Source: Escherichia coli
GTDB taxonomy: Bacteria; Pseudomonadota; Gammaproteobacteria; Enterobacterales; Enterobacteriaceae
Strand: one strand, 5' to 3'
DNA: 64,000 bases
Assembly: GCF_030013595.1 (NCBI RefSeq)
Contig: NZ_CP122768.1
Shown: in pieces, positions 4,572-58,739 of the stretch
Numbering within the stretch: the stretch's first letter is position 1
Layout of the letters: each line of letters begins with the position of its first letter
The notes under the pieces: model-generated
Seen by the model: only the letters and a program-made list of their open reading frames with translations
What the model was told of the DNA's origin: nothing
Database searches by the model: none
Made by a program: the position numbers and the translations under genes

Positions 4572-7500
4572 TTAGTCATTTTGTTGACAGAAAACAGCTA
4601 TCTCCTGGTCCAGCTCTGCAATGTGTTCTTTAACAGAGTTCAGCAGCTGAAGAATTTCAGGCTTACTGTCATCTGAAACAGGTGTTATTTCTAACTGATG
4701 GCTAATATTAATCAACTTTTGCAAATTCAGGATGTTAGCCGCACCGTGGATGCGATGAATACACTGATGGAAAGTTCTGTTGTCGCCAGCTTCTAGTGCA
4801 TGAAACGCAGCGGGTAGATCTTTATGCGTTTCATGCTGGAAAGTCATGAGAATCTCCTGCATCAGTTGTAGATCGTTCGCCGTATTATTTTTCAGGGCCT
4901 CGATATCAAGGTGGCGATACTGAGGTGCAATAGGCGCAACCTGGTGTAACTGACTTAAATGTGTTTTCAGTACATCCAGGGTCAACGGTTTGAACAAACA
5001 TAAGTTCATGCCGCAATTTAACCCTTTTTCACGTTCGTTAGCCTGTGCGTTGGCTGTAAGCCCCCAGATGGGTAAGGCCGAATTTTGCTCACGGAGTTTG
5101 CGAGTCAACTCAAAACCATCCATATTCGGCATATTAACGTCAGTAATAAGCAGATCATAATGTTGCATACTGACTTTGTGTAGCGCTTGCACACCATCAG
5201 TGGCTTCATCAACATCATATCCTAATAGATTTAGCTGGCGTTTGAGTAATAGCCTGTTGGTCGGATGATCATCCGCGATTAATATGCTCAACTTTTCAGG
5301 GAGTGTCATAGGTTGTTCTGCTTTTGCCTCGACAGTCGCCACTTGTTGGGTAATTTCTACCGGGATTGTGATCGTAAATGTCGTTCCTATGCCTGGATGA
5401 CTTTCTAATGACAAATCGCCCTGCATGTTTTTAATTAATTCTTTGCAGATCATTAAGCCTAAACCAGAACCTGTTTGCTGACGACCTGCACTTGTTTGGC
5501 TATAGCGTTTAAACAGTTGTTGTTGTTCTTCCTGCGATAATCCACTTCCAGAATCCATAATCGTCATTTTGATTACAGCGTGGTTGTCATCAATGTTAAC
5601 CAGGGAGGTCGTAATTTTTACTGCCCCCTCGGTGGTAAATTTGAGAGCATTGCTCAGTAAATTAGATAAGACCTGCTTAAACGCCTGAGGGTCGATCTTA
5701 ACCAGGTAATGTTCAGGAAACGTACTGCTGCAACTTAATGCGATGGATTTGCTTGCAGCAATCGCACCGAAAGAGTGACAAGTGTTCTGGACTAAAGTAG
5801 GGATATCGACCCATTGTGGTTGAAGTTGATAGTTACCCGACTCAATTTTGTCGACATCAAGGATTTCACCAATTAAGCCGAGGAGTGATTGTCCGGTGGC
5901 GTAGGCAAGTGAAATCGCCTCCACCCGTTGTTCCTTGCTAAGACCAGAACCCGACAGAAGTTCCAGGAAGCCCATAATGGAGCTTATTGGTGTTCTTATT
6001 TCGTGACTCATTGTTGCCAGAAACTGACTTTTTGCGACAGTTGCATTGATCGCTTTATTTCTCTCTACTTCGAGAGCGTGAATTAAATCACGTGTCTCGG
6101 TAATATCTTGCCAACCACAAATATAAACAGCATGATCGCTGGCTGGCAGATTGCATAATGTATGCCAGTGATTAATGCATCTTTTCTCGATGCCATTATC
6201 AATTTCAAATACCTGTGTGTATATTGTTCGATTTTCTTTCGTTTCTGCTGTGACTTCATGCGCATTAGAAAAAACATCTTTAAAGGGTGAGTCACTGTTT
6301 TCTAATGGTAACATTGCATTTTTGTAGTAATCCGCAGTGAAATAATGTTCAAAAGCACTATTATGACTAATGACATTACCTTGCCAGTTTACAACATAAG
6401 TTGGATTCGGTAAGGAATCCGAGAGTGCTTTTCGGAATGATATTTGGTTTTCTAAATCACCCTGAATGACTTTACGACGACGAACTGAGCGTAACAGGTA
6501 GAATCCCCATAAAAGGCTACTGCCAACTAATAAAACGGATAATGTCGTGACAATATAAAATTGCTCGCTATAGAGGTCCCATGTGTCAATGGTCACATTG
6601 GGCATTTTAATCCATTTTTCCGTCAGGCGCAGAACTTCGCTTGGGGGAATTGCATTCAGAGCTTTATTAATAATATCCTTAAGTTCCGGTTCTCCGCGAG
6701 GAAAAGCGAACGAAAGCGATGCATTCTGAACGCCGGGAATAAGAAAATGATAAAGTTCATTAGGATAGTAATGGTCGATCATGTAACGCGAATTTAGCTG
6801 TGTCGCGACCAGAGCATCAAGTTCACCTTCCTTGACCTTGTGAAATGCAGCGCTGGCGTTATCGACTTTTATCCACTCTACCTCCGGATACATCTCTTTT
6901 AATTGCGAATGCAGCTCATAATAATATGGAATGGCAACTTTCATTCCTTTTTTTAATGTTTGTTCACTGTCAGGCGCTTTTTGCATGACAAAAACGTAAG
7001 GCGTTGTTATGAAGGCTTCAGCAAATAAAACATTATTTTCTCTATCTTCACTATAAATAGCACCGGGTAATATATCCCATCCGCCGGGATTCAGCTGTGT
7101 TCCAGCATGGATATTGTGTGAAACGGTGATCGGAGAAAAATTTAAACCTGTTTGCAAGGTAATAATATTAAGAATATCCCCCATAACGCCCCGAACCGAG
7201 CCATTTTCATCCGTCATAGAATAGGGAGGGGAGTAAGGATTTTCCAACACCTTTAAATCGGGATGCTGCTTAATCCACTGTTTTTCATGTTCAGTGAGTT
7301 CTAATGGTTTGTTCAGAAAGGCCAGGTTTCCTGTATCAAGCCAATTTTGTGATACTTCATAGCGAACTTCGTTTGTCAAAGCATCAACAAATCGATTGAG
7401 TACTTCATTAAGAACGACAGATTCTTTTCTGGTCAAGAAAAAATTATATTGACGCGGTGAGTTATAATATTTCACTACATTTAAGGAGTGAGTGAAATAG

Positions 7501-33950: not shown

Positions 33951-34025
33951 GGGTCAGTCGTATAAAGGTCATTACGGAAGGCTGTTAACCTTCTTATCGT
34001 GGTTCGAGTCCACGCTGTCCCGCCA
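33951..34025 (+). tRNA. Candidate phage-encoded tRNA (anticodon GTT, Asn-like); atypical D-arm and one acceptor-stem mismatch
   Basis: Manual fold: acceptor GGGTCAG/CTGTCCC, anticodon stem GAAGG/CCTTC with loop CTGTTAA, T-arm CGTGG-TTCGAGT-CCACG, 3' GCCA. Confidence 0.45.
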
Positions 34026-34030
34026 AATAT

Positions 34031-34106
34031 GCTGGTTTAGCTCCAATGGTAGAGCGGTCGCCTTGTAAGCGAATGGGTAGCGGTTCAAGTCCGTTAACCA
34101 GCACCA
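34031..34106 (+). tRNA. Candidate phage-encoded tRNA (anticodon TGT, Thr-like)
   Basis: Manual fold: acceptor GCTGGTT/AACCAGC, D-arm GCTC-CAATGGTA-GAGC, anticodon loop CTTGTAA, T-arm AGCGG-TTCAAGT-CCGTT, 3' ACCA. Confidence 0.5.
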
Positions 34107-47942: not shown

Positions 47943-49325
47943 ATGGCTAGTTGGCAACAAGGAATCAACTCAGGCGGCTTTCTTGCTGGTATCGGTGGGC
48001 AAAACTCAAATGCGCCAAAGGCAAGTGATGTAAGTGAGGCGTTGGCCTATATTCGCCAGAACAACGAAATGGAGCGCTCAGGTCGCAATAACATCGGCCT
48101 TCAGGCGTTGCAGGGGCTTGGTAGTGTCGCTCAAACATATCAAGCCGCAAAGCAACAGGAATTCCAAAAAGAATATGCGGCAGCCATCCAGTCAGGTGAT
48201 CGGCAGCAGGTGCGAGATCTGATGACCAAATATCCTGGTCAATTAGAGAAGATTCAGTCTGGTATGAAGTGGGCAGACGAAGACCAGCGCAATTCTATCG
48301 GCACCTTAGCGGCTGGCGCACGCCTTGCGTCATCGTCTCCAGAAGCAATGCAATCATGGCTGCAAAACAACGCCAAGGAACTGGCGCGCGTCGGTGTTGA
48401 CCCTAACAGCGTTGCTCAGATGTATCAGCAAAACCCTTCAGGATTTGGTGAGTTTGTTGATCACCTTGGAATGGCTGCTCTTGGTCCGATTGATTACTTC
48501 AATGTTCAGGACAAGATGGCTGGTCGTGAAATTGACCGAGGCAAACTGGCAGAGACAATCCGCAGCAATCAGGCTGGCGAGGCGCTAACAGCACGAGGCC
48601 AGAACATCACGATGCGCGGTCAGGACTTATCTGCTTCTACTGCGCGACGAGGTCAGGATTTGGCAATGCAGCGAGCGTCAACAAGACGAATCGCTGGGAA
48701 TGATGAGCGTACAGTTCAGTTATCAGATGGCAGAACTGTAACGGTAGGCGGGAAGCTTCACGGCGCTGGGGCTAATGCGTTCTACGAAGGCATCGACAAC
48801 GAGGGGAATATGGTTCGCGTCCCTGCTGGCTCTATTGCCGCTCCGGCTACATCGGCAGCAAGCGCGCAGAATTACGCAATGAAGAAAGATCTTGATGCAA
48901 TTTCTGGTGCATCAATTGACGATCTTGGCTTCATGACTGGCATTACAGGCTCTTCAGGTTCTCCTGCTCTTGGTGCAGATATTCGTAGCCGTGCATCTGG
49001 TGGTGATCAGAGGAAACTATACAACGCTGCACAGCGAATCCAAGGAAAGATGCAGAATCAGGGCATTGCAGCAGCCAGAGACATGGGGGCATCCGGTATC
49101 AACACCGTTGCAGAAGCAAAGATGTATTTTCAAGGTATGCCACAGGTTGATTTCTCAAGCCCTGAAGCACTGCAACAATCAATGCGCGACATTCAGCAAT
49201 ATACCGACAATTACAACCAGCAATATAACGTTAATGTTGGTAAATCTCAGCGGCAGCAATCTCAACCTGCACAGGTATCACAGCCAGCAGCCAGCAGTAA
49301 CTTTTCTTCACTATGGGGTGATTAA
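47943..49325 (+). CDS. Ejection protein (P22 gp20-like)
   Basis: 460 aa, positional. Confidence 0.55.
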
Positions 49326-51430
49326 TGGCTAAAGCATGGAAAGATGTTATCGCTTCTCCACAGTATCAGGCGTTAGCACCAGAACAAAAAGCGCAGGCTC
49401 AGGAGCAATACTTCAATGAAGTCGTGGCCCCGCAAGCCGGAGAAAGTGTAGAGCAGGCTAAGCAGGCTTTTTATGCTGCCTATCCACTACCATCAACGAA
49501 TGAAATAGACCGATACCAATCAGCAACTCAAAATATTCAACATACATCATCTGATAATTCTCTTGCGTCAGGGTATGCAAAGTTAGCTACTCAGCAAAGA
49601 GAGGGGCTTGAGCGTTCAGCAGAACAGGGAGCCAGTCTTGGGGCTGCGATGCGCGATGCTATAACAGGCGAAAGCCGAATGACTCCAGAGATGGAGAGAC
49701 TGCAAAATGTCGACCTTGCCCCAGAGTTAACCTCACTCAGCATGGATGCTCTAAAAGCTCGATGGTCTCAACTTTTCGGCTCTGACGCATCTCAGGAAAA
49801 GATTCTTCAGAGCATGGGAGCGAAATTAAGGCAGGATGAGAAGGGGAACACTATCGTTTCCCTGCCATCCGGTGATTATGCTCTGAACAAGCCGGGTTTA
49901 TCGCCGCAAGACGTGGCATCGTTTCTGGCTAATGCGCTGGCGTTTACACCAGCGGGCAGGGCTGGAACGGTGCTTGGTGCCATAGGAAAATCAGCAGCTA
50001 CAGATTTAGCACTACAGGGAGCCACCAGCCTTGCTGGTGGAGAAGATATTGATCCGTTACAAACGGTAATTTCTGCTGGCATTGGTGGTATTGGTAAGGG
50101 GCTGGAAAATACAGCGAGTGCGGTTTCGAGGGCTGTTCGTGGTGATATGTCGCCTGAAGCAAAGGCTGCTGTCGACTTTGCATCGGAAAGAAATCTGCCG
50201 TTAATGACCAGTGACATGCTGAAAGATAAAACCTTTATGCAGAGTCAGGCTCAGACATTAGGCGAAAGAGTTCCTTTTTTTGGAACCGGTAAGAATCGGC
50301 TGAATCAACAACAAGCACGAGAAAATTTAGTCAGAACATTTAGCGATGGTCTGGGTGGTATTTCTGATAAACAGCTTTATGAATCTGCGACTAAAGGGCA
50401 ACAAAAATTCATTGAGGCAGCAGGAAAGCGATATAACCGCATAATTGACGCTATGGGGGATACCCCTGTCGATCTCTCAAACACGGTAAAAGCTATCGAC
50501 AATCAGATTGCCGTGTTAAGCCGCCCGGGCAAATCTCAGGATAGAGCCGCGGTAAAAGTCTTGCAGCAATTTAAAGACGATATCACCAGCGGGCCAAATG
50601 ACCTGCGTCTGGCGAGGGAAAACAGAACCGATCTTCGAAAGCGATTTATGGCGTCATCTGACACTGTTGATAAAGATACGCTCCAGAAAGCCAGCGATAT
50701 TATCTACAAGGCATATACGGCGGATATGAAAAAAGCCGTAGCCAAAAATCTTGGAGCAGACGAAGCCATTAATATGGCAAGGGTTGATCGCTCATGGTCT
50801 AAATTCAATGACATGATGGGAAGAACGCGCGTTCAAAAGGCAATAGCCAGCGGCAAGGCCACGCCTGAGGATGTAACAAAACTCGTTTTTAGCCAAAGCC
50901 CATCAGAACGTTCTCAGCTTTACAGGCTTCTGGATGACAATGGTAGGCAAAACGCACGAGCAGCCATAGTTCAGAATGCTGTAGATAAGGCGACTGATCC
51001 GTCTGGAAATATCAGTGTTGAGAAGTTTATTAATGCGTTACACCGGAACAGGAAGCAATCAGCAACTTTCTTTAAAGGCGTACATGGAAAGGAACTGGAC
51101 GGCGTTATTAAATACCTCAACGATACAAGACACGCGGCAAAAGCGAACGTTCAAAACTTAAATGGTCAGCAGCTTTATGGATTGTTAGTTGGTGGTGGCA
51201 TCATAAACGCAGCAGTATTAGCGGGGATGCTAAAAACGGCTGCGTTTGTTGTTCCTGCTGCTGGTGCCGTAGGCGGAGCAGCGAAGGCATACGAAAGCCC
51301 TGTTATACGAAATGCCTTGTTACGTCTGGCAAATACGCCAAAAGGTAGCACAGCATATGACAGAGCGATCAGTACGGTCACACAATCGCTCACCAGAGTC
51401 GCACAGGCATCACAAAAAGAAGCTCAATAA
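49325..51430 (+). CDS. Ejection protein (P22 gp16-like)
   Basis: 701 aa with hydrophobic C-terminal segments; last gene of the ejection-protein block. Confidence 0.6.
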   Translation: MAKAWKDVIASPQYQALAPEQKAQAQEQYFNEVVAPQAGESVEQAKQAFYAAYPLPSTNEIDRYQSATQNIQHTSSDNSLASGYAKLATQQREGLERSAEQGASLGAAMRDAITGESRMTPEMERLQNVDLAPELTSLSMDALKARWSQLFGSDASQEKILQSMGAKLRQDEKGNTIVSLPSGDYALNKPGLSPQDVASFLANALAFTPAGRAGTVLGAIGKSAATDLALQGATSLAGGEDIDPLQTVISAGIGGIGKGLENTASAVSRAVRGDMSPEAKAAVDFASERNLPLMTSDMLKDKTFMQSQAQTLGERVPFFGTGKNRLNQQQARENLVRTFSDGLGGISDKQLYESATKGQQKFIEAAGKRYNRIIDAMGDTPVDLSNTVKAIDNQIAVLSRPGKSQDRAAVKVLQQFKDDITSGPNDLRLARENRTDLRKRFMASSDTVDKDTLQKASDIIYKAYTADMKKAVAKNLGADEAINMARVDRSWSKFNDMMGRTRVQKAIASGKATPEDVTKLVFSQSPSERSQLYRLLDDNGRQNARAAIVQNAVDKATDPSGNISVEKFINALHRNRKQSATFFKGVHGKELDGVIKYLNDTRHAAKANVQNLNGQQLYGLLVGGGIINAAVLAGMLKTAAFVVPAAGAVGGAAKAYESPVIRNALLRLANTPKGSTAYDRAISTVTQSLTRVAQASQKEAQ

Positions 51431-51448
51431 CTGGTTAGCCATGGATGG

Positions 51449-51637
51449 TTATTTCCTTAGCACATGAAACAATGTTTGCTTTAATTCCACCCATACAATT
51501 ATGACCACTATAGACAGACAAAAGAAACTGAATGCATTGGCATCACGATCGAAACCTTCTCCGGCACTAAATCCGTAAAAGGTCATAAAAAATATAAAAA
51601 TTGCGCACTTTGCAACGTTTACAAATTTTTTCTTCAC
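51449..51637 (-). CDS. Small hydrophobic membrane protein (62 aa, two predicted TM helices), antisense to the tail operon
   Basis: GTG start 5 nt after a perfect AAGGAGG SD on the minus strand; strongly hydrophobic translation. Confidence 0.5.
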   Translation of the reverse strand: MKKKFVNVAKCAIFIFFMTFYGFSAGEGFDRDANAFSFFCLSIVVIIVWVELKQTLFHVLRK

Positions 51638-52011
51638 ACCAACCTCCTTAGTTTTGCTCAGGATACCAGATGATACTTTATTGGTGGAGTGGTGTGTGAA
51701 AACGTGTCAACGACAAACCATCCACAACTTGGACGAATGATTTAGCAAAAAGTGCTATTTTTGGTGTTTAGTGTCATAGAAAAGTGAATAGCTCACTTTT
51801 CAACATTGCATGAAACTTGCAGGAAATGTGACATTACCTTATAGGTAATTTCGGCGAAAATGCAGTAAATGTGAAACGTAATGGTTTAAACATGTCGCTA
51901 AAGTGGTTGTAAGTTAGCCTCCGAAGGATTGCTGATAGCTTTGTTATAGTATTAAATGACATTTGACATAGTTGGATACTTAGCTGTGGCTATCAAGATG
52001 GAGGTGTGTTC

Positions 52012-52455
52012 ATGCTTACTTGTTTTGATGTCGCCGACTACTTCCTGTCGCGGTGTGACGAGGATAGCGGTGACACAATCTCTAATTTAAAATTACAAAA
52101 GCTTGTTTACTATGCTCAGGGGTTTTCATTGGCGTTGCTTGGTGAGCCTCTTTTTCAGAATAAGATGGAAGCTTGGATGCATGGCCCTGTTGTCCCTGAG
52201 CTTTATCGCCGTTATAAACAATATGGTAATGGAGCTATCCCTTCTCCAGAGTCTTTTGATGCTGAAAAATTCAGCGAAGAACAGTTAGAGCTATTAGAAG
52301 AAGTCTGGGATGTTTTTGGGCAATTTTCTGCCTGGAAACTGAGGAACATGACACACGAAGAGTCACCATGGAGATCAAACTATATTGAGGGTGTTGGTGG
52401 TTCTGAAATTAGCTCTAAGGAGATGGCAGAGTACTTTGCAACTCGGATTAACTAA
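52012..52455 (+). CDS. Panacea/DUF4065-like (SocA/GepA-type) protein, putative antitoxin-type component
   Basis: MLTCFDVADYFLSRC...NLKLQKLVYYAQGFSLALLGEPLF...AWMHGPVVPELY matches the recalled DUF4065 signature; GAGGTG SD upstream. Confidence 0.55.
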   Translation: MLTCFDVADYFLSRCDEDSGDTISNLKLQKLVYYAQGFSLALLGEPLFQNKMEAWMHGPVVPELYRRYKQYGNGAIPSPESFDAEKFSEEQLELLEEVWDVFGQFSAWKLRNMTHEESPWRSNYIEGVGGSEISSKEMAEYFATRIN

Positions 52456-52459
52456 CGAG

Positions 52460-52879
52460 ATGGCAAGAAAATCTAAAAGGATTATCCCCCCTGCTGAATC
52501 TACAGGTAAGTTAAAGTTAGGGCCGCAGTCAGGGGGGAATTCAGATCAAAAGAAACCGAAATTTTCATTCTGTTACATCCAAAGCTCTCACTGCATAACG
52601 AAATGCCAAAAAGATGAGAAAGCTGGCTTAGCTGATAAATTATACAGATTAAGTCAACTAACATGGGCAGAGATTAAGCAGCAAGGTAGGCATAAGCTTG
52701 GATTTGAGAAGATTGCAAGGGGTGCAATTAAAGCTGGTATCCCCGGTCATATAACGGAAGACGTAGATCATTTCTTGGCTTTTAGATTTGATGATTTGAA
52801 AGCCATGGTTGGTTATCGTCTTGGATCGACATTTTTTGTTATATGGCTTGATAGAGAGTTCAACCTATACAAGCACTAA
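52460..52879 (+). CDS. Unknown partner protein (139 aa), translationally coupled to the Panacea-like gene; candidate toxin/effector
   Basis: ATG 4 bp after the upstream stop; basic N-terminus, Cys/His cluster, C-terminal ...GYRLGSTFFVIWLDREFNLYKH; strong terminator follows. Confidence 0.5.
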   Translation: MARKSKRIIPPAESTGKLKLGPQSGGNSDQKKPKFSFCYIQSSHCITKCQKDEKAGLADKLYRLSQLTWAEIKQQGRHKLGFEKIARGAIKAGIPGHITEDVDHFLAFRFDDLKAMVGYRLGSTFFVIWLDREFNLYKH

Positions 52880-52923: not shown

Positions 52924-53127
52924 TTAACCAAATCGATCCTTAAAGCGTCTATCGCTGTTGCGTCTCTCCATTTTACTGTTGCAGTACGGACAAAGATGCT
53001 GTTTCTTTCCATCGATAGTCCATGTGAAGTACTTTTTCTTAAATCCAGCACCACAGATATCGCAACTTCTTGGTTTAAACATACTGGCTATGAAGATAAG
53101 AACAACAAATCCTATGATCCATTCCAT
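52924..53127 (-). CDS. Small membrane-anchored zinc-ribbon protein (67 aa)
   Basis: N-terminal TM helix MEWIIGFVVLIFIASMF followed by CDICG...CPYC zinc-ribbon pattern. Confidence 0.35.
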   Translation of the reverse strand: MEWIIGFVVLIFIASMFKPRSCDICGAGFKKKYFTWTIDGKKQHLCPYCNSKMERRNSDRRFKDRFG

Positions 53128-53463: not shown

Positions 53464-53781
53464 CTATTTTTTCTCAGAGCTCATATTGTAATAGGTGGTA
53501 TAAATAGAGATTGATTTCTGACATGCTTCAAGAAATTGCTGCGGAGTCATCCCGAGCCTTGCTTGCTCTGTAGTAAGGAATCTCTGTAAGAATTCATTCC
53601 CACCTGGCATGTTTGTAGATTCTTGGAATATTGCCATTTGTTTGATTGCACCACACATACCAGCCATTTTAGAAGCTATCATGAGGCCTTGTATTTCATC
53701 AAAACTGCTATCGTCTGATTTTGTTTCTGCGTTAGCTATGCTCGAGAGACACAGGAGCAATAGGATAGCGATACGTTTCAT
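53464..53781 (-). CDS. Secreted/periplasmic protein (105 aa, cleavable signal peptide), co-transcribed with the mnt-like gene
   Basis: MKRIAILLLLCLSSIANA signal sequence; start overlaps the mnt-like stop (ATGA). Confidence 0.5.
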   Translation of the reverse strand: MKRIAILLLLCLSSIANAETKSDDSSFDEIQGLMIASKMAGMCGAIKQMAIFQESTNMPGGNEFLQRFLTTEQARLGMTPQQFLEACQKSISIYTTYYNMSSEKK

Positions 53782-54029
53782 TTTTCACCATTGCCATGCA
53801 TACATTTTAACTTCTCAACATCATGCTCAAGCTCTATCAGTCGCGATGCTATAGTTGCAAGATCTAGTGCTTGAATGTGTTTGTTTTTTTCGGTCCATGC
53901 TTCAAGTGCTGCGACCATCTCAGCATTTAATGAACGAGAATTAGCCTCAGCCAGTTCAATAAGACGTTCCTTTATCTCTACAGGAAGCCTCAGATTCACT
54001 TGAGGGTTTTTGTACTTACGATCAGACAT
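53778..54029 (-). CDS. Mnt-like ribbon-helix-helix repressor (Arc/MetJ family)
   Basis: 83 aa; N-terminal ...NLRLPVEIKERLIELAEANSRSLNAEMVAALEAW RHH fold; divergent from the arc/ant pair as in P22 immI. Confidence 0.7.
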   Translation of the reverse strand: MSDRKYKNPQVNLRLPVEIKERLIELAEANSRSLNAEMVAALEAWTEKNKHIQALDLATIASRLIELEHDVEKLKCMHGNGEK

Positions 54030-54104: not shown

Positions 54105-54121
54105 GTATGCGTACCACATAC
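54105..54121. promoter_or_regulatory. Candidate operator: imperfect palindrome GTATGCGTACCACATAC with ATGCGTACC repeated 21 bp upstream
   Basis: In the divergent mnt-like/arc-like intergenic region, just upstream of the arc-like start. Confidence 0.4.
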
Positions 54122-54133
54122 AAAGGAGCAAAA

Positions 54134-54280
54134 ATGAAAGTTAAGACATTAAGGATGCCAGAATGGCTGGAAAAGGCTTTGGAGCAGTCCGCGAAAAAGG
54201 ATGATCGGTCGTTCAGTAATGAGGTATTGAGGAGACTAAAGGAGTCAGTAGCTAAGGATGGAATTGTTTGTCCAGAATGA
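54134..54280 (+). CDS. Arc-like ribbon-helix-helix repressor (48 aa; below ORF-track cutoff)
   Basis: Manual translation MKVKTLRMPEWLEKALEQSAKKDDRSFSNEVLRRLKESVAKDGIVCPE; GGAG SD upstream; precedes the ant-like gene. Confidence 0.55.
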   Translation: MKVKTLRMPEWLEKALEQSAKKDDRSFSNEVLRRLKESVAKDGIVCPE

Positions 54281-54346
54281 GTAAAGCCCAAGCTATTGCG
54301 AGTAGCTCGGGCTTAAATCGCCAGTAAATTTTGAGGAAAAACTGAC

Positions 54347-55276
54347 ATGAAAAGTATAGCAACAGCAGTATCTACTATCAACGTGCCATTCCACGGCGCA
54401 GAGCTTTATGTCGTCAATCACAACGGTGAGCCGTACACCCCAATGAAACCTATCGTTGAAGGTATGGGTATGGATTGGGCTTCACAGTTTACGAAAATAA
54501 AGCAACGGTTTAAAACCTCCATTGTGAAAATCACAATGCAGCTTCCTGGTGATGAACAGTGCCGTGAGATTATTTGTTTGGCACTTCGCAAACTTGCTGG
54601 CTGGCTGCAAACCATCAGTCCAAACAAAGTCCGCCCTGAAATCCGCGACAAGGTAATCCAGTATCAGGAAGAGTGTGACGATGTGCTATACGAGTACTGG
54701 ACTAAAGGCCATGTAGTTAACCCACGCAAAGCTAAAAAGGCGTTGCCGGGTAAAATCACCACTGAACAGCAGGAAGCCATTAAACAACTCGTCATGAGTC
54801 GCGGTCAGTCTCTGCCAAAAGAAAAACAGGCTAAGGCGATGATCACCATGTGGTCGTCACTGAAATCCCATTTTGGATGTTCGTACAAAGAAATCAGTGA
54901 GGAGCAGTTTACCGAAGCACTGTCACTTGCTGCTCGAGTTCCACTTGAAGGTGAGTTCATTGGCAAACAAGAGAAGAAAACCAACGAGCTTTCTGCAAAA
55001 GAAGCAAACAGCCTTGTATGGCTCTGGGATTATGCTAACCGTTCACAGGCATTATTCCGCGAATTGTATCCGGCGCTAAAACAAATTCAATCGAACTATT
55101 CCGGCAGATGCTACGACTACGGTCATGAATTCTCGTATGTTATCGGAATGGCGAGAGACGTTTTAATCAATCACACACGAGATGTTGATATTAATGAGCC
55201 AGACGGACCAACGAATCTTTCCGCATGGATGAGACTTAAGAATAAAGAATTACCTCCTTCAGTACATAACTACTGA
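54347..55276 (+). CDS. Antirepressor (Ant-like)
   Basis: 309-aa ORF following the arc-like gene, in the position of P22 ant. Confidence 0.6.
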
Positions 55277-57348: not shown

Positions 57349-58539
57349 TTATTCATTTTCATCAAGCCAGTCCGCCCACCACTGCATCATTTCTCTGCGC
57401 TTGTCTAGATACTGAGCATGGTTGTAAATCCCACGCACAGATCCGCCGTTGGCATGTGCCAGTTGCACTTCAATAGCGTCAGCAGGCCATTCGTGCTCGT
57501 TCATAATTGTGCTGAATTCATGCCTGAATCCGTGACCGCTTTCCAGACCCTCATAGCCGATTTGTTTGATCACAAGCAATACCGCGTTCTCGCAGATTGG
57601 CTTCTTCTTATCGTTGCGCCCTGCAAAAACAAACTCTGATACTGGTTTGGTGATGGAGCTTAACGTAGTGAGAAGTTCAACCACCTGGTCTGACATCGGG
57701 ACCACATGAATTTTGCGTCCCTTCATCACGCTGGCGTCGATGGTGATAATCCTGTTTTCAAAATCGACGTTCTTCCATTGCATGGAGCGAAGCTCTTTCG
57801 TTCTTAGGGCTGTATAACGTAAAACTTTTGTCGCAATAAGCGATACGATACTTCCTGAAAATGTTGCCAGTGCTTTGTTGAATGCCGGGATCTGGTCTGC
57901 AGGAAGAAACGGGAAGTTCTTCTTGCGGTATCCTTTCATGGCGTCTGCAAGGTCAGGTGCCGGGTTATATTTAGCCCTTCCGGTGACAATAGCGTAACGG
58001 AAAACCTCTCCGCATCTTCTGCGGGCTTTGTTGGCTCGCTCCATTGCACCGCGATCTTCAAACCTGCGGATTACTTCAAGAAGTTGCATCGGCTCAATAT
58101 CCTGAATTTCAAGACCGCCGATGATGGGTAAAATGTCGTCATCAAACATTTTGGCAAGTTCAGTCGCATACCCTACAGACCAGACTTGCTTCTTGTGCTC
58201 GTACCATTCCTTGTAAATGGCGCTAAAGGAATTGTTGTTAGACGAAGCCTTTTTCGCTTTTACCGGATCGATGCCAACCGAGATGTCTTTCCTCGCAGTC
58301 CATGCTTTATCCCTTGCCTCTTGCAAAGTCATAAGCGGATATTTTCCGACGGTCAGGATTTTCTCCTTACCGTCAATCTTGTAGCGAAGCTGCCATACCT
58401 TTTTCCCGGATACAGGGACATAAAGGTACAATCCATTACCATCGAGAAGGCGGTATGGTTTTTCTTTCGGCTTTGCTGCTTCAATCTGCTTAACGGTGAG
58501 CATGGGTAAAAATCCGGTGGGTAAAATTATTTTATCCAC
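57349..58539 (-). CDS. intS: Tyrosine integrase, P4-type (IntS-like); start possibly at internal Met 58503
   Basis: ...MLTVKQIEAAKPKEKPYRLLDGNGLYLYV... with C-terminal catalytic region (HGFRH ... Y); directly adjacent to argW. Confidence 0.9.
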   Translation of the reverse strand: MDKIILPTGFLPMLTVKQIEAAKPKEKPYRLLDGNGLYLYVPVSGKKVWQLRYKIDGKEKILTVGKYPLMTLQEARDKAWTARKDISVGIDPVKAKKASSNNNSFSAIYKEWYEHKKQVWSVGYATELAKMFDDDILPIIGGLEIQDIEPMQLLEVIRRFEDRGAMERANKARRRCGEVFRYAIVTGRAKYNPAPDLADAMKGYRKKNFPFLPADQIPAFNKALATFSGSIVSLIATKVLRYTALRTKELRSMQWKNVDFENRIITIDASVMKGRKIHVVPMSDQVVELLTTLSSITKPVSEFVFAGRNDKKKPICENAVLLVIKQIGYEGLESGHGFRHEFSTIMNEHEWPADAIEVQLAHANGGSVRGIYNHAQYLDKRREMMQWWADWLDENE

Positions 58540-58664: not shown

Positions 58665-58679
58665 TGGTGTCCCCTGCAG
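58665..58679. repeat. Prophage attR core: 15-bp direct repeat (tggtgtcccctgcag) within the argW 3' end
   Basis: Exact copy of 19143..19157. Confidence 0.7.
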
Positions 58680-58739
58680 GAATCGAACCTGCAATTAGCC
58701 CTTAGGAGGGGCTCGTTATATCCATTTAACTAAGAGGAC
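58665..58739 (-). tRNA. argW: tRNA-Arg (anticodon CCU), argW; prophage attR at its 3' end
   Basis: Reverse complement reads GTCCTCTTAGTTAAATGGATATAACGAGCCCCTCCTAAGGGCTAATTGCAGGTTCGATTCCTGCAGGGGACACCA. Confidence 0.9.

Follow-up and report, generated by a model that had tools for sequence, protein, structure and literature searches.

What is the gene that lies directly behind the ejection-protein gene of a P22-like prophage, faces the late operon, and escapes most genome annotations? We examined this question in a 64,000-nucleotide (nt) stretch of Escherichia coli DNA (contig NZ_CP122768.1), hereafter the window, which carries a P22-like prophage spanning roughly 18.7–58.7 kb, with its integrase gene at 57349–58539 (−) beside tRNA-Arg(CCT). 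A first inspection of the letters without database searches, referred to here as the sequence-only reading, had drawn attention to a 62-codon open reading frame (ORF) directly after gp16 on the opposite strand. This ORF, which we call orf62, was indeed found at 51449–51637 (−), with a GTG start codon at 51637–51635 and a TAA stop codon at 51451–51449, and its 62-residue product is MKKKFVNVAKCAIFIFFMTFYGFSAGEGFDRDANAFSFFCLSIVVIIVWVELKQTLFHVLRK. Our analysis indicates that orf62 is almost certainly a translated, genuine protein-coding gene, and that its product is a small, predicted inner-membrane protein of the prophage. We propose it as a candidate exclusion protein from a family that is already catalogued and uncharacterized.

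The translation start of orf62 agrees with the sequence-only reading, which had placed a perfect Shine-Dalgarno (SD) sequence 5 nt ahead of it. AAGGAGG occupies 51643–51649 (−) and is separated by 5 nt (ttggt) from the start codon, which is the GTG that this reading did not mention and which is replaced by ATG in some homologues. Since AAGGAGG occurs three times in the window against 5.1 copies expected, and is thus no more frequent than by chance, only the placement of the motif matters. The homologues keep a purine-rich, SD-like run of varying sequence (GGAGG, AGGAG, AAGGA or AGAGG), together with GTG or ATG. Spurious ORFs of 40–110 codons are common around orf62, so that the length of the ORF is weak evidence by itself, and it is conservation that raises orf62 above chance.

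A word-indexed search of 5.8 billion proteins retrieved homologues at 77–81% identity and of exactly 62 residues from Salmonella, Serratia fonticola and metagenomes, as well as near-identical copies of orf62 that gene callers had extended upstream. Compared with the homologues at 77–81% identity, the ratio of nonsynonymous to synonymous substitution rates (dN/dS) was 0.12–0.42. Third codon positions accounted for 22 of the 43 variable sites, the replacements were conservative, and the orf62 frame was the sole frame open in every copy compared. An exhaustive profile search of 1.84 billion representative proteins gave only 12 matches, among them proteins of 61–66 residues at 32–52% identity. The distant homologues (61–66 residues, down to about 32–44% identity) retain both the length and the two hydrophobic stretches of orf62. 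K10, F14, M18, G22, S37, F38, I43, I46, I47, W49, E51 and K53 are invariant or near-invariant in the family, and K10, F14, M18, G22 and W49 are invariant between orf62 and the distant homologues. At the level of sequence comparison, these results established an ORF with its translation signals and a protein family under purifying selection. The RNA gave no comparable signal, as orf62 had no Rfam match at E ≤ 1 and its folding energy was no better than that of shuffled sequence (z = 0.25); a type I toxin-antitoxin peptide or a known small RNA was rejected as an identity for orf62 on these two grounds.

The product of orf62 matched phrog_21338 from end to end (residues 1–62 on profile positions 1–62 of 62; E = 5.3e-45, 152.6 bits), a family of 62-residue phage proteins without an assigned function. 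Entries of phrog_21338 and the "hypothetical protein" entries of NCBI at 77–81% identity, such as E0U80_15875 of Salmonella Newport and RCH46_04005 of Serratia fonticola, belong to the same family and carry no functional annotation. At ≥95% identity, orf62 is present in 88 of 5,426 complete E. coli genomes, and it is also carried in many Salmonella; most copies are more than 95% identical. The suspicion that such a gene is easily missed was justified, because orf62 is left unannotated in phages phiv205-1, JEP4 and UPF_BP1, and the NCBI annotation pipeline PGAP omitted it in most of the 20 genomes among the matches listed from the 88 E. coli carriers.

The sequence-only reading had described the product as almost entirely hydrophobic, with two transmembrane (TM) helices. 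The helices were supported by hydropathy and by structure prediction alike, whereas the description of the composition was overstated: the protein has a grand average of hydropathy of 0.78, with hydrophobic stretches at about residues 5–25 and 34–50, a polar, acidic and net negative loop between them (EGFDRDAN), and net positive ends consisting of the N-terminal MKKK and the amphipathic, basic C-terminal tail ELKQTLFHVLRK. AlphaFold2, run on the family alignment, modelled helices at residues 2–25 and 29–61, with a mean predicted local distance difference test score of 71. The product is therefore predicted to form a two-helix hairpin in the inner membrane. By the positive-inside rule, applied to the charged ends and the acidic loop, both termini probably face the cytoplasm, with a very short periplasmic loop. 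In helix 1, the invariant residues are spaced i, i+4, i+8 and i+12, which places the conserved K10, F14, M18 and G22 on one face. Helix 2 bears a similar stripe (S37/F38, I43, I46/I47, W49, E51 and K53) and ends in W-x-E-[IL]-K at the predicted cytoplasmic interface. In the model, these conserved faces would suit a protein working via helix-helix contacts within the membrane. Foldseek against viral structures returned only generic helical hairpins (best E = 1.3). A cleavable signal peptide, cut after S-A-G26, was judged unlikely, given a hydrophobic stretch of about 20 residues and the lack of conservation of the site among the distant homologues.

The gene faces the prophage's DNA-delivery machinery. 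The neighbouring gp16 homologue, at 49325–51430 (+), encodes an ejection or DNA-transfer protein of 701 residues with 30% identity to P22 gp16 over 482 residues (E = 4e-53), and it is preceded by homologues of gp7 (PF25688) and gp20 (PF16928). The surrounding genes had loosely been called the tail operon, but gp16 belongs to the late operon and its product is an ejection protein. The two genes are convergent, and their stop codons are 18 nt apart. We then compared 57 orf62 loci with measurable context and five further loci for the most distant members, which together cover all 12 sequence clusters. Conservation at this position, the check suggested by the sequence-only reading, proved to be strong: in every locus examined, orf62 lies in a P22-like prophage, between homologues of gp16 and the tailspike gene, and antisense to the late operon. 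The gap between the stop codons of orf62 and gp16 is 17–20 nt in 45 of the 57 loci, −4 to 57 nt in ten, and 351 nt in two, in which an extra gene stands between orf62 and gp16.

The surroundings of orf62 vary on both sides. Its upstream neighbours are of at least a dozen kinds, including a 161-residue lipoprotein, a Rap1a-like secreted protein, a C2/S24-type repressor, Arc-like proteins, a Fic protein, a tail-anchored 149-residue protein, a 77-residue protein with two TM segments, divergent genes and the tailspike gene itself, while orf62 is the sole gene between gp16 and the tailspike gene in the loci L025–L027, L060, L066 and L067. By their C-termini, the gp16 proteins encoded beside orf62 form 13 clusters, which belong to two or more unrelated superfamilies, and one orf62 allele was found beside four of these clusters. 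The variable neighbours and the variable gp16 imply that orf62 is anchored to a position and not to a partner allele, and the idea that orf62 is a dedicated partner of its own gp16 allele was rejected, as its alleles do not track the gp16 type. P22, Sf6, Emek, BTP1 and HS1 were found to lack orf62.

In other prophages, the genes upstream of and co-oriented with orf62 often encode envelope proteins. The co-oriented genes of this type include a 77-residue protein with two TM segments in L024 (4741–4974, +), a 149-residue tail-anchored protein in L003 (4270–4719, −), the 161-residue lipoprotein in L005 (5483–5968, +; phrog_6067) and the Rap1a-like secreted protein in L010 (5644–5991, +; PF18602). 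In L018, a gene for a 106-residue coiled coil with a single TM segment (5216–5536, +; phrog_5962, weakly Rz-like) is inserted between orf62 and gp16.

A conserved DNA block extends from about 20–45 nt upstream of the start codon, thus including the SD, to 11 nt past the stop codon, and the sequences flanking it are unrelated. At its 3′ end, the block contains the motif CCATCCATGGC (51438–51448, −), which lies between the stop codons of orf62 and gp16 and is unique in the window (0.05 copies expected). The motif CCATCC(A/T)TGGC stands once, directly 3′ of the orf62 stop codon, in most orf62 loci, very distant ones such as that of orf66 included, and it is kept even where the protein is only about 32% identical. 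A closely similar motif (CCGTCCTTGGC) follows the stop codon of P22 sieA, and the motif or a one-base variant of it also follows the stop codons of the gene for the 77-residue membrane protein (L024) and of a gene for a 129-residue multi-TM protein in E. coli 582 (L068); its positions in other loci are 2323–2333 in L029, 4975–4985 in L024, 235–245 in L063 and about 3039–3049 in L068. In several loci, the motif is followed by GGAGGTTGnTnTG, which constitutes the SD and start of the next cassette. Possible roles of this junction motif are those of a linker in recombination, of a site for processing or termination, and of a binding site. The locus of E. coli 582 that encodes the multi-TM protein, WP_000560496.1 (3050–3439, −), shares its gp16 3′ end and its junction motif with the window. 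This protein resembles neither HS1 (type B) SieA nor any PHROG family, and it may be another uncharacterized occupant of the slot that is used by sieA in other phages. About 290 E. coli genomes match the flanks of orf62 but not orf62 itself, and many of them appear to carry the window-type gp16 3′ end and junction.

At its 5′ end, orf62 travels with a conserved leader (51638–51675, −; …ATCATCTGGTATCCTGnGCAAAACTAAGGAGGTTGGT), as the megablast blocks shared with JEP4 and UPF_BP1 reach as far as 51675 and 51655, respectively. A possible extended −10 element, TGGTATCCT (51660–51668), lies within this leader, but it is weak and was picked by hand. Upstream of the leader, the intergenic region 51676–52005 is 99% identical to phage Emek and contains inverted repeats at 51780–51800 and 51833–51849 (AAAAGTGA-5-TCACTTTT and ATTACCT-3-AGGTAAT), which are operator-like or hairpin-like. 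This region presumably holds divergent promoters and operators, leftward for orf62 and rightward for a Panacea-domain gene. In many loci, orf62 looks co-transcribed with its upstream genes. Promoter and terminator scans of L025 and L027, where orf62 stands alone, gave nothing usable; the hand-picked promoter candidates TTGGAA-17-TAAGAT (L025) and TTGCAT-15-TATAAT (L027) are weak and unverified, and were set aside. Emek (L004, 3620–4009, −) and the window (51629–52000) have in common the upstream region, the SD, the GTG and the first codons, after which Emek continues into an unrelated secreted protein of 129 residues (orf129, phrog_2651). The shared start and the different continuation place a mosaic joint within the first few codons of orf62.

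Morons are independently transcribed accessory units in phage genomes (Juhala 2000; Cumby 2012). Given its presence in some P22-like phages and absence from others, its sharp mosaic boundaries and its deviant base composition (a G+C content of about 37.5% (0.375), as compared to about 47% for gp16), orf62 is, as judged from comparative sequence data, an accessory, moron-type gene of the P22-like prophage. The junctions and start regions that are shared by different genes imply that the position adjacent to gp16 behaves as a slot for interchangeable, leftward, envelope-directed cassettes; types A and B of SieA also occupy it.

To our knowledge, SieA is the only characterized factor that blocks the P22-type trans-envelope DNA conduit. 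P22 SieA, of which types A, B and C are distinguished, resides in the inner membrane and excludes superinfecting phages by blocking the injection of their DNA (Leavitt et al. 2024, PMC10883804). It has 160–210 residues, several TM segments and a conserved cytoplasmic motif, FxRYPxEAxxFNK, and its escape mutations map to the C-terminal regions of gp16 and gp20 (PMC10883804). The P22 genes oriented leftward between genes 16 and 9, sieA and mnt, are expressed from the prophage (PMC10883804; PMC2629481), and late transcription runs antisense through such leftward genes. The likeness to orf62 is one of place and kind: between genes 16 and 9, the first gene to run leftward against gp16 is sieA in the one case and orf62 in the other; each of the two occurs only in P22-like prophages and encodes an inner-membrane protein, predicted in the case of orf62. 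On the other hand, orf62 encodes 62 residues with two predicted helices, whereas SieA has 164–212 residues and more predicted TM segments, and the FxRYPxEAxxFNK motif is not found in orf62. Membership of orf62 in the SieA family was thus rejected on profile similarity, motif, size and number of TM segments. P22 and HS1 carry SieA and lack orf62.

Two further entry blockers are comparable in size and location. HK97 gp15 is a small inner-membrane protein that blocks genome entry and is encoded by a moron inside the operon of virion genes, and T4 Imm is a small phage-encoded inner-membrane protein that stops DNA entry. Both, as proposed for orf62, halt DNA entry without blocking a receptor (PMC3594210; PMC11436027). 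However, they come from other phage groups, gp15 belongs to the YebO family, and no homology of either to orf62 was detected, as judged from the Pfam and PHROG family searches alone, in which phrog_21338 was the sole match.

A second precedent comes from the junction itself. In BTP1, STnc6030 is a leftward "antisense RNA" at the gp16-tailspike junction that is abundant in lysogens and excludes BTP1 (Owen et al. 2020, PMC7067206); its escape mutations are non-synonymous and alter the gp16 C-terminus, and prophage induction is unaffected (PMC7067206). STnc6030 shares with orf62 the junction, the orientation and the P22-like prophage, but it is described as non-coding, and BTP1 has no orf62 homologue. 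We rejected the idea that STnc6030 hides one, as the BTP1 gap between gp16 and the tailspike gene, at 155 nt, is too short and tblastn finds nothing. In this gap (L062, LT714109), which lies inside STnc6030, we observed at about 5012–5083 (−) a TATAAT box, a GGAGGG SD and a hydrophobic ORF of 23 codons (MERDLLNFVFLIFGLVVGKLLFA) that ends across the gp16 stop codon and shows no detected homology to orf62. Given that escape occurs by non-synonymous gp16 changes and that induction is unaffected, a membrane micropeptide might explain the STnc6030 exclusion better than RNA pairing.

The sequence-only reading had named superinfection exclusion or injection blocking as candidate roles of such proteins, and we find this plausible. 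From position and architecture only, we infer a function for orf62 in exclusion. In its favour are the slot and orientation shared with sieA, the lack of overlap between orf62 and SieA in the loci compared, the restriction of the small family to P22-like prophages, the exchange of cassettes at the junction, the frequent envelope-protein neighbours and the STnc6030 precedent. We consider it quite possible, if short of probable, that the product excludes phages from within the inner membrane, its target being the gp7/gp20/gp16 conduit or a host factor on which this conduit depends. In this scheme, the repressed prophage would express orf62, and in lytic growth the convergent late transcription would silence it. 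Its hairpin would sit in the inner membrane, with the basic termini in the cytoplasm and the short acidic loop in the periplasm, and would protect the lysogen by interfering with the DNA-delivery conduit formed by gp7, gp20 and gp16 of incoming P22-like phages, or alternatively by acting on a host inner-membrane factor required by the conduit. As a result, the DNA of a superinfecting phage would not get past the inner membrane. Since one orf62 allele stands beside many unrelated gp16 types, the action would be on a generic feature or a host factor, and not on its own gp16 allele.

Several observations weigh against an exclusion function. We looked for expression, localization or phenotype data on orf62 or its homologues and found none, and a consensus scan of the window revealed neither a sigma-70 promoter nor a terminator for orf62. 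The protein matches no Pfam, NCBIfam or PADLOC family (at E ≤ 1, PADLOC-DB 2.0 gave 0 families). Neither its sequence nor its family profile resembles SieA (hhalign of the family alignment against P22 SieA, probability 0.2%), and the SieA profile phrog_7745, which matches both P22 SieA and HS1 SieA, was not among the orf62 matches at E ≤ 1. That SieA of types A and B, the types searched for, is missing from all 57 orf62 loci may reflect only competition for one physical slot. The orf62 alleles do not co-vary with the C-terminal or body type of gp16, so a specific interaction with gp16 is not indicated. Many of the loci are near-identical, so that the independent observations number nearer 12–15 than 57. 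Finally, a two-helix hairpin would also suit other roles, for instance in a holin-like or immunity protein or in the regulation of a host membrane protein.

A bolder form of the exclusion proposal is doubtful, though conceivable: orf62 would found a minimal, two-helix class of injection blockers for P22-like phages (a "mini-SieA"). From within the inner membrane, such a blocker would target either something that very different types of gp16, gp20 and gp7 have in common or a host factor (YajC, for example). The gp16-adjacent position would then be a general exchange slot for exclusion cassettes, marked by CCATCCWTGGC, and by extension STnc6030 might act via its 23-residue hydrophobic peptide.

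The main rival to an exclusion function is that orf62 encodes a small membrane protein of lysogenic conversion with a target unrelated to phage entry. Such a protein could be an orphan that confers immunity to a toxin or bacteriocin acting on the membrane, or it could modulate a transporter or sensor of the host (cf. AcrZ and MgrB). A small hydrophobic hairpin with conserved intramembrane faces would serve this purpose, and the independence of the orf62 alleles from the gp16 type is in keeping with it. The neighbours lend it plausibility, since the Serratia neighbour is Rap1a-like, a type associated with type VI secretion system immunity, and a lipoprotein and other envelope proteins are encoded nearby. 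It is harder to square with the strict restriction of the family to P22-like prophages, where it is found only beside gp16, whereas morons of general benefit to the host usually cross phage types; moreover, orf62 matches no known immunity or small-protein family. We regard this explanation as unlikely, and the remaining ones as less likely than it.

A membrane-permeabilizing peptide is a further rival. Class II holins have two TM segments, cytoplasmic N- and C-termini and charged ends, and the predicted topology of orf62 is compatible with this plan. A holin-like, abortive-infection or toxin peptide would be harmless in the lysogen and triggered or de-repressed on infection, with cell death or collapse of the membrane potential before the incoming phage finishes; the convergent late transcription could serve as antisense control, and the best, non-significant Foldseek match of orf62 (E = 1.3) is a holin. 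However, no significant holin or lysis PHROG match at E ≤ 1 and no holin Pfam match was obtained, and the prophage has a separate lysis region around 34.6–35.6 kb (judged from ORF positions only), outside which orf62 lies, antisense to the late operon. The candidate of a class II holin or pinholin was thus rejected, despite the compatible topology. Furthermore, the strong, unstructured translation start is unlike that of type I toxin mRNAs, and orf62 is stably carried in the 88 complete E. coli genomes and many Salmonella. A permeabilizing peptide therefore appears quite improbable.

There is a similarly slim prospect that orf62 serves the phage's own cycle, by shielding the inner membrane of the producing cell from newly made gp16 or by stopping re-infection late in the cycle. 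The invariant linkage to gp16 across very divergent phages would suit this role, and sieA itself has been reported to be up-regulated during induction (PMC10883804). Against it stand the orientation of orf62, antisense to the late operon, and its absence from most P22-like phages, including P22, Sf6, Emek and BTP1, which implies that orf62 is not needed for the basic cycle.

It is very improbable that the RNA is the functional product and the ORF incidental. In that case, a leftward transcript would act antisense to the gp16 3′ end, as reported for STnc6030 at the same junction; no terminator was found between the orf62 stop codon and gp16, so that read-through into gp16 antisense is likely. 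The constraint on orf62, however, is at the protein level, with dN/dS below 0.45, a third-position bias, and length and hydrophobic pattern kept at 32–44% identity despite nucleotide divergence, and the RNA shows neither a structure signal (z = 0.25) nor an Rfam match. In addition, one orf62 allele occurs beside unrelated gp16 3′ ends, which rules out a conserved antisense target. Lastly, a chance ORF kept by recent common descent, as the >95% identity of most copies and the missing PGAP annotation might suggest, is scarcely credible and was effectively refuted by dN/dS, the exhaustive profile search and the alignment of diverged, length-conserved homologues from several genera and metagenomes, with their purifying selection and conserved SD and start.

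The analysis of the window also revealed further features of this prophage. Divergent from orf62, the gene at 52006–52455 (+) encodes a Panacea-domain protein (SocA-like antitoxin, PF13274, E = 2e-24), and it is followed at 52460–52879 (+) by a gene for a 139-residue protein (phrog_8366; a weak PADLOC match to NsnC, E = 9e-6). Lying within the "ant moron", the two genes probably form a pair of PanA type, either a toxin-antitoxin system or a defence pair, and phage Emek carries the same pair (orf149/orf161). The gene at 52924–53127 (−) encodes a 67-residue protein with an N-terminal TM helix and a zinc-ribbon-like C-terminal CxxC…CxxC. A 105-residue signal-peptide protein (53464–53781, −, and 53778–54029, −, being the coordinates of the two genes; phrog_19844) overlaps, and is encoded immediately downstream of, a Mnt/Arc-like repressor gene (PF03869). 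At 54280–54346 (−), between the arc-like gene (54107–54280) and ant (54347–55276), sar RNA (RF00262) was matched below threshold, with 29.3 bits where the gathering score is 43 (E = 0.006). P22 has its sar at the corresponding place, so that an intact immI regulatory circuit is probable. The prophage also carries its own tRNA-Asn(GTT) and tRNA-Thr(TGT) genes at 33951–34106 (+), and tRNA-Arg(CCT) at 58665–58739 (−), beside the integrase gene, is presumably the attachment site.

If orf62 does exclude phages, its 62-residue product would be far simpler than SieA as a probe of the passage of gp7, gp20 and gp16 through the inner membrane, and orf62 would add a defence gene that current annotation and defence-finder pipelines have missed. 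If it proves to have no effect on phage entry, orf62 would still be a clean case of a conserved small membrane protein missed by length cut-offs. The fixed slot and its conserved junction motif, in turn, offer a handle on the exchange of accessory cassettes among P22-like prophages.

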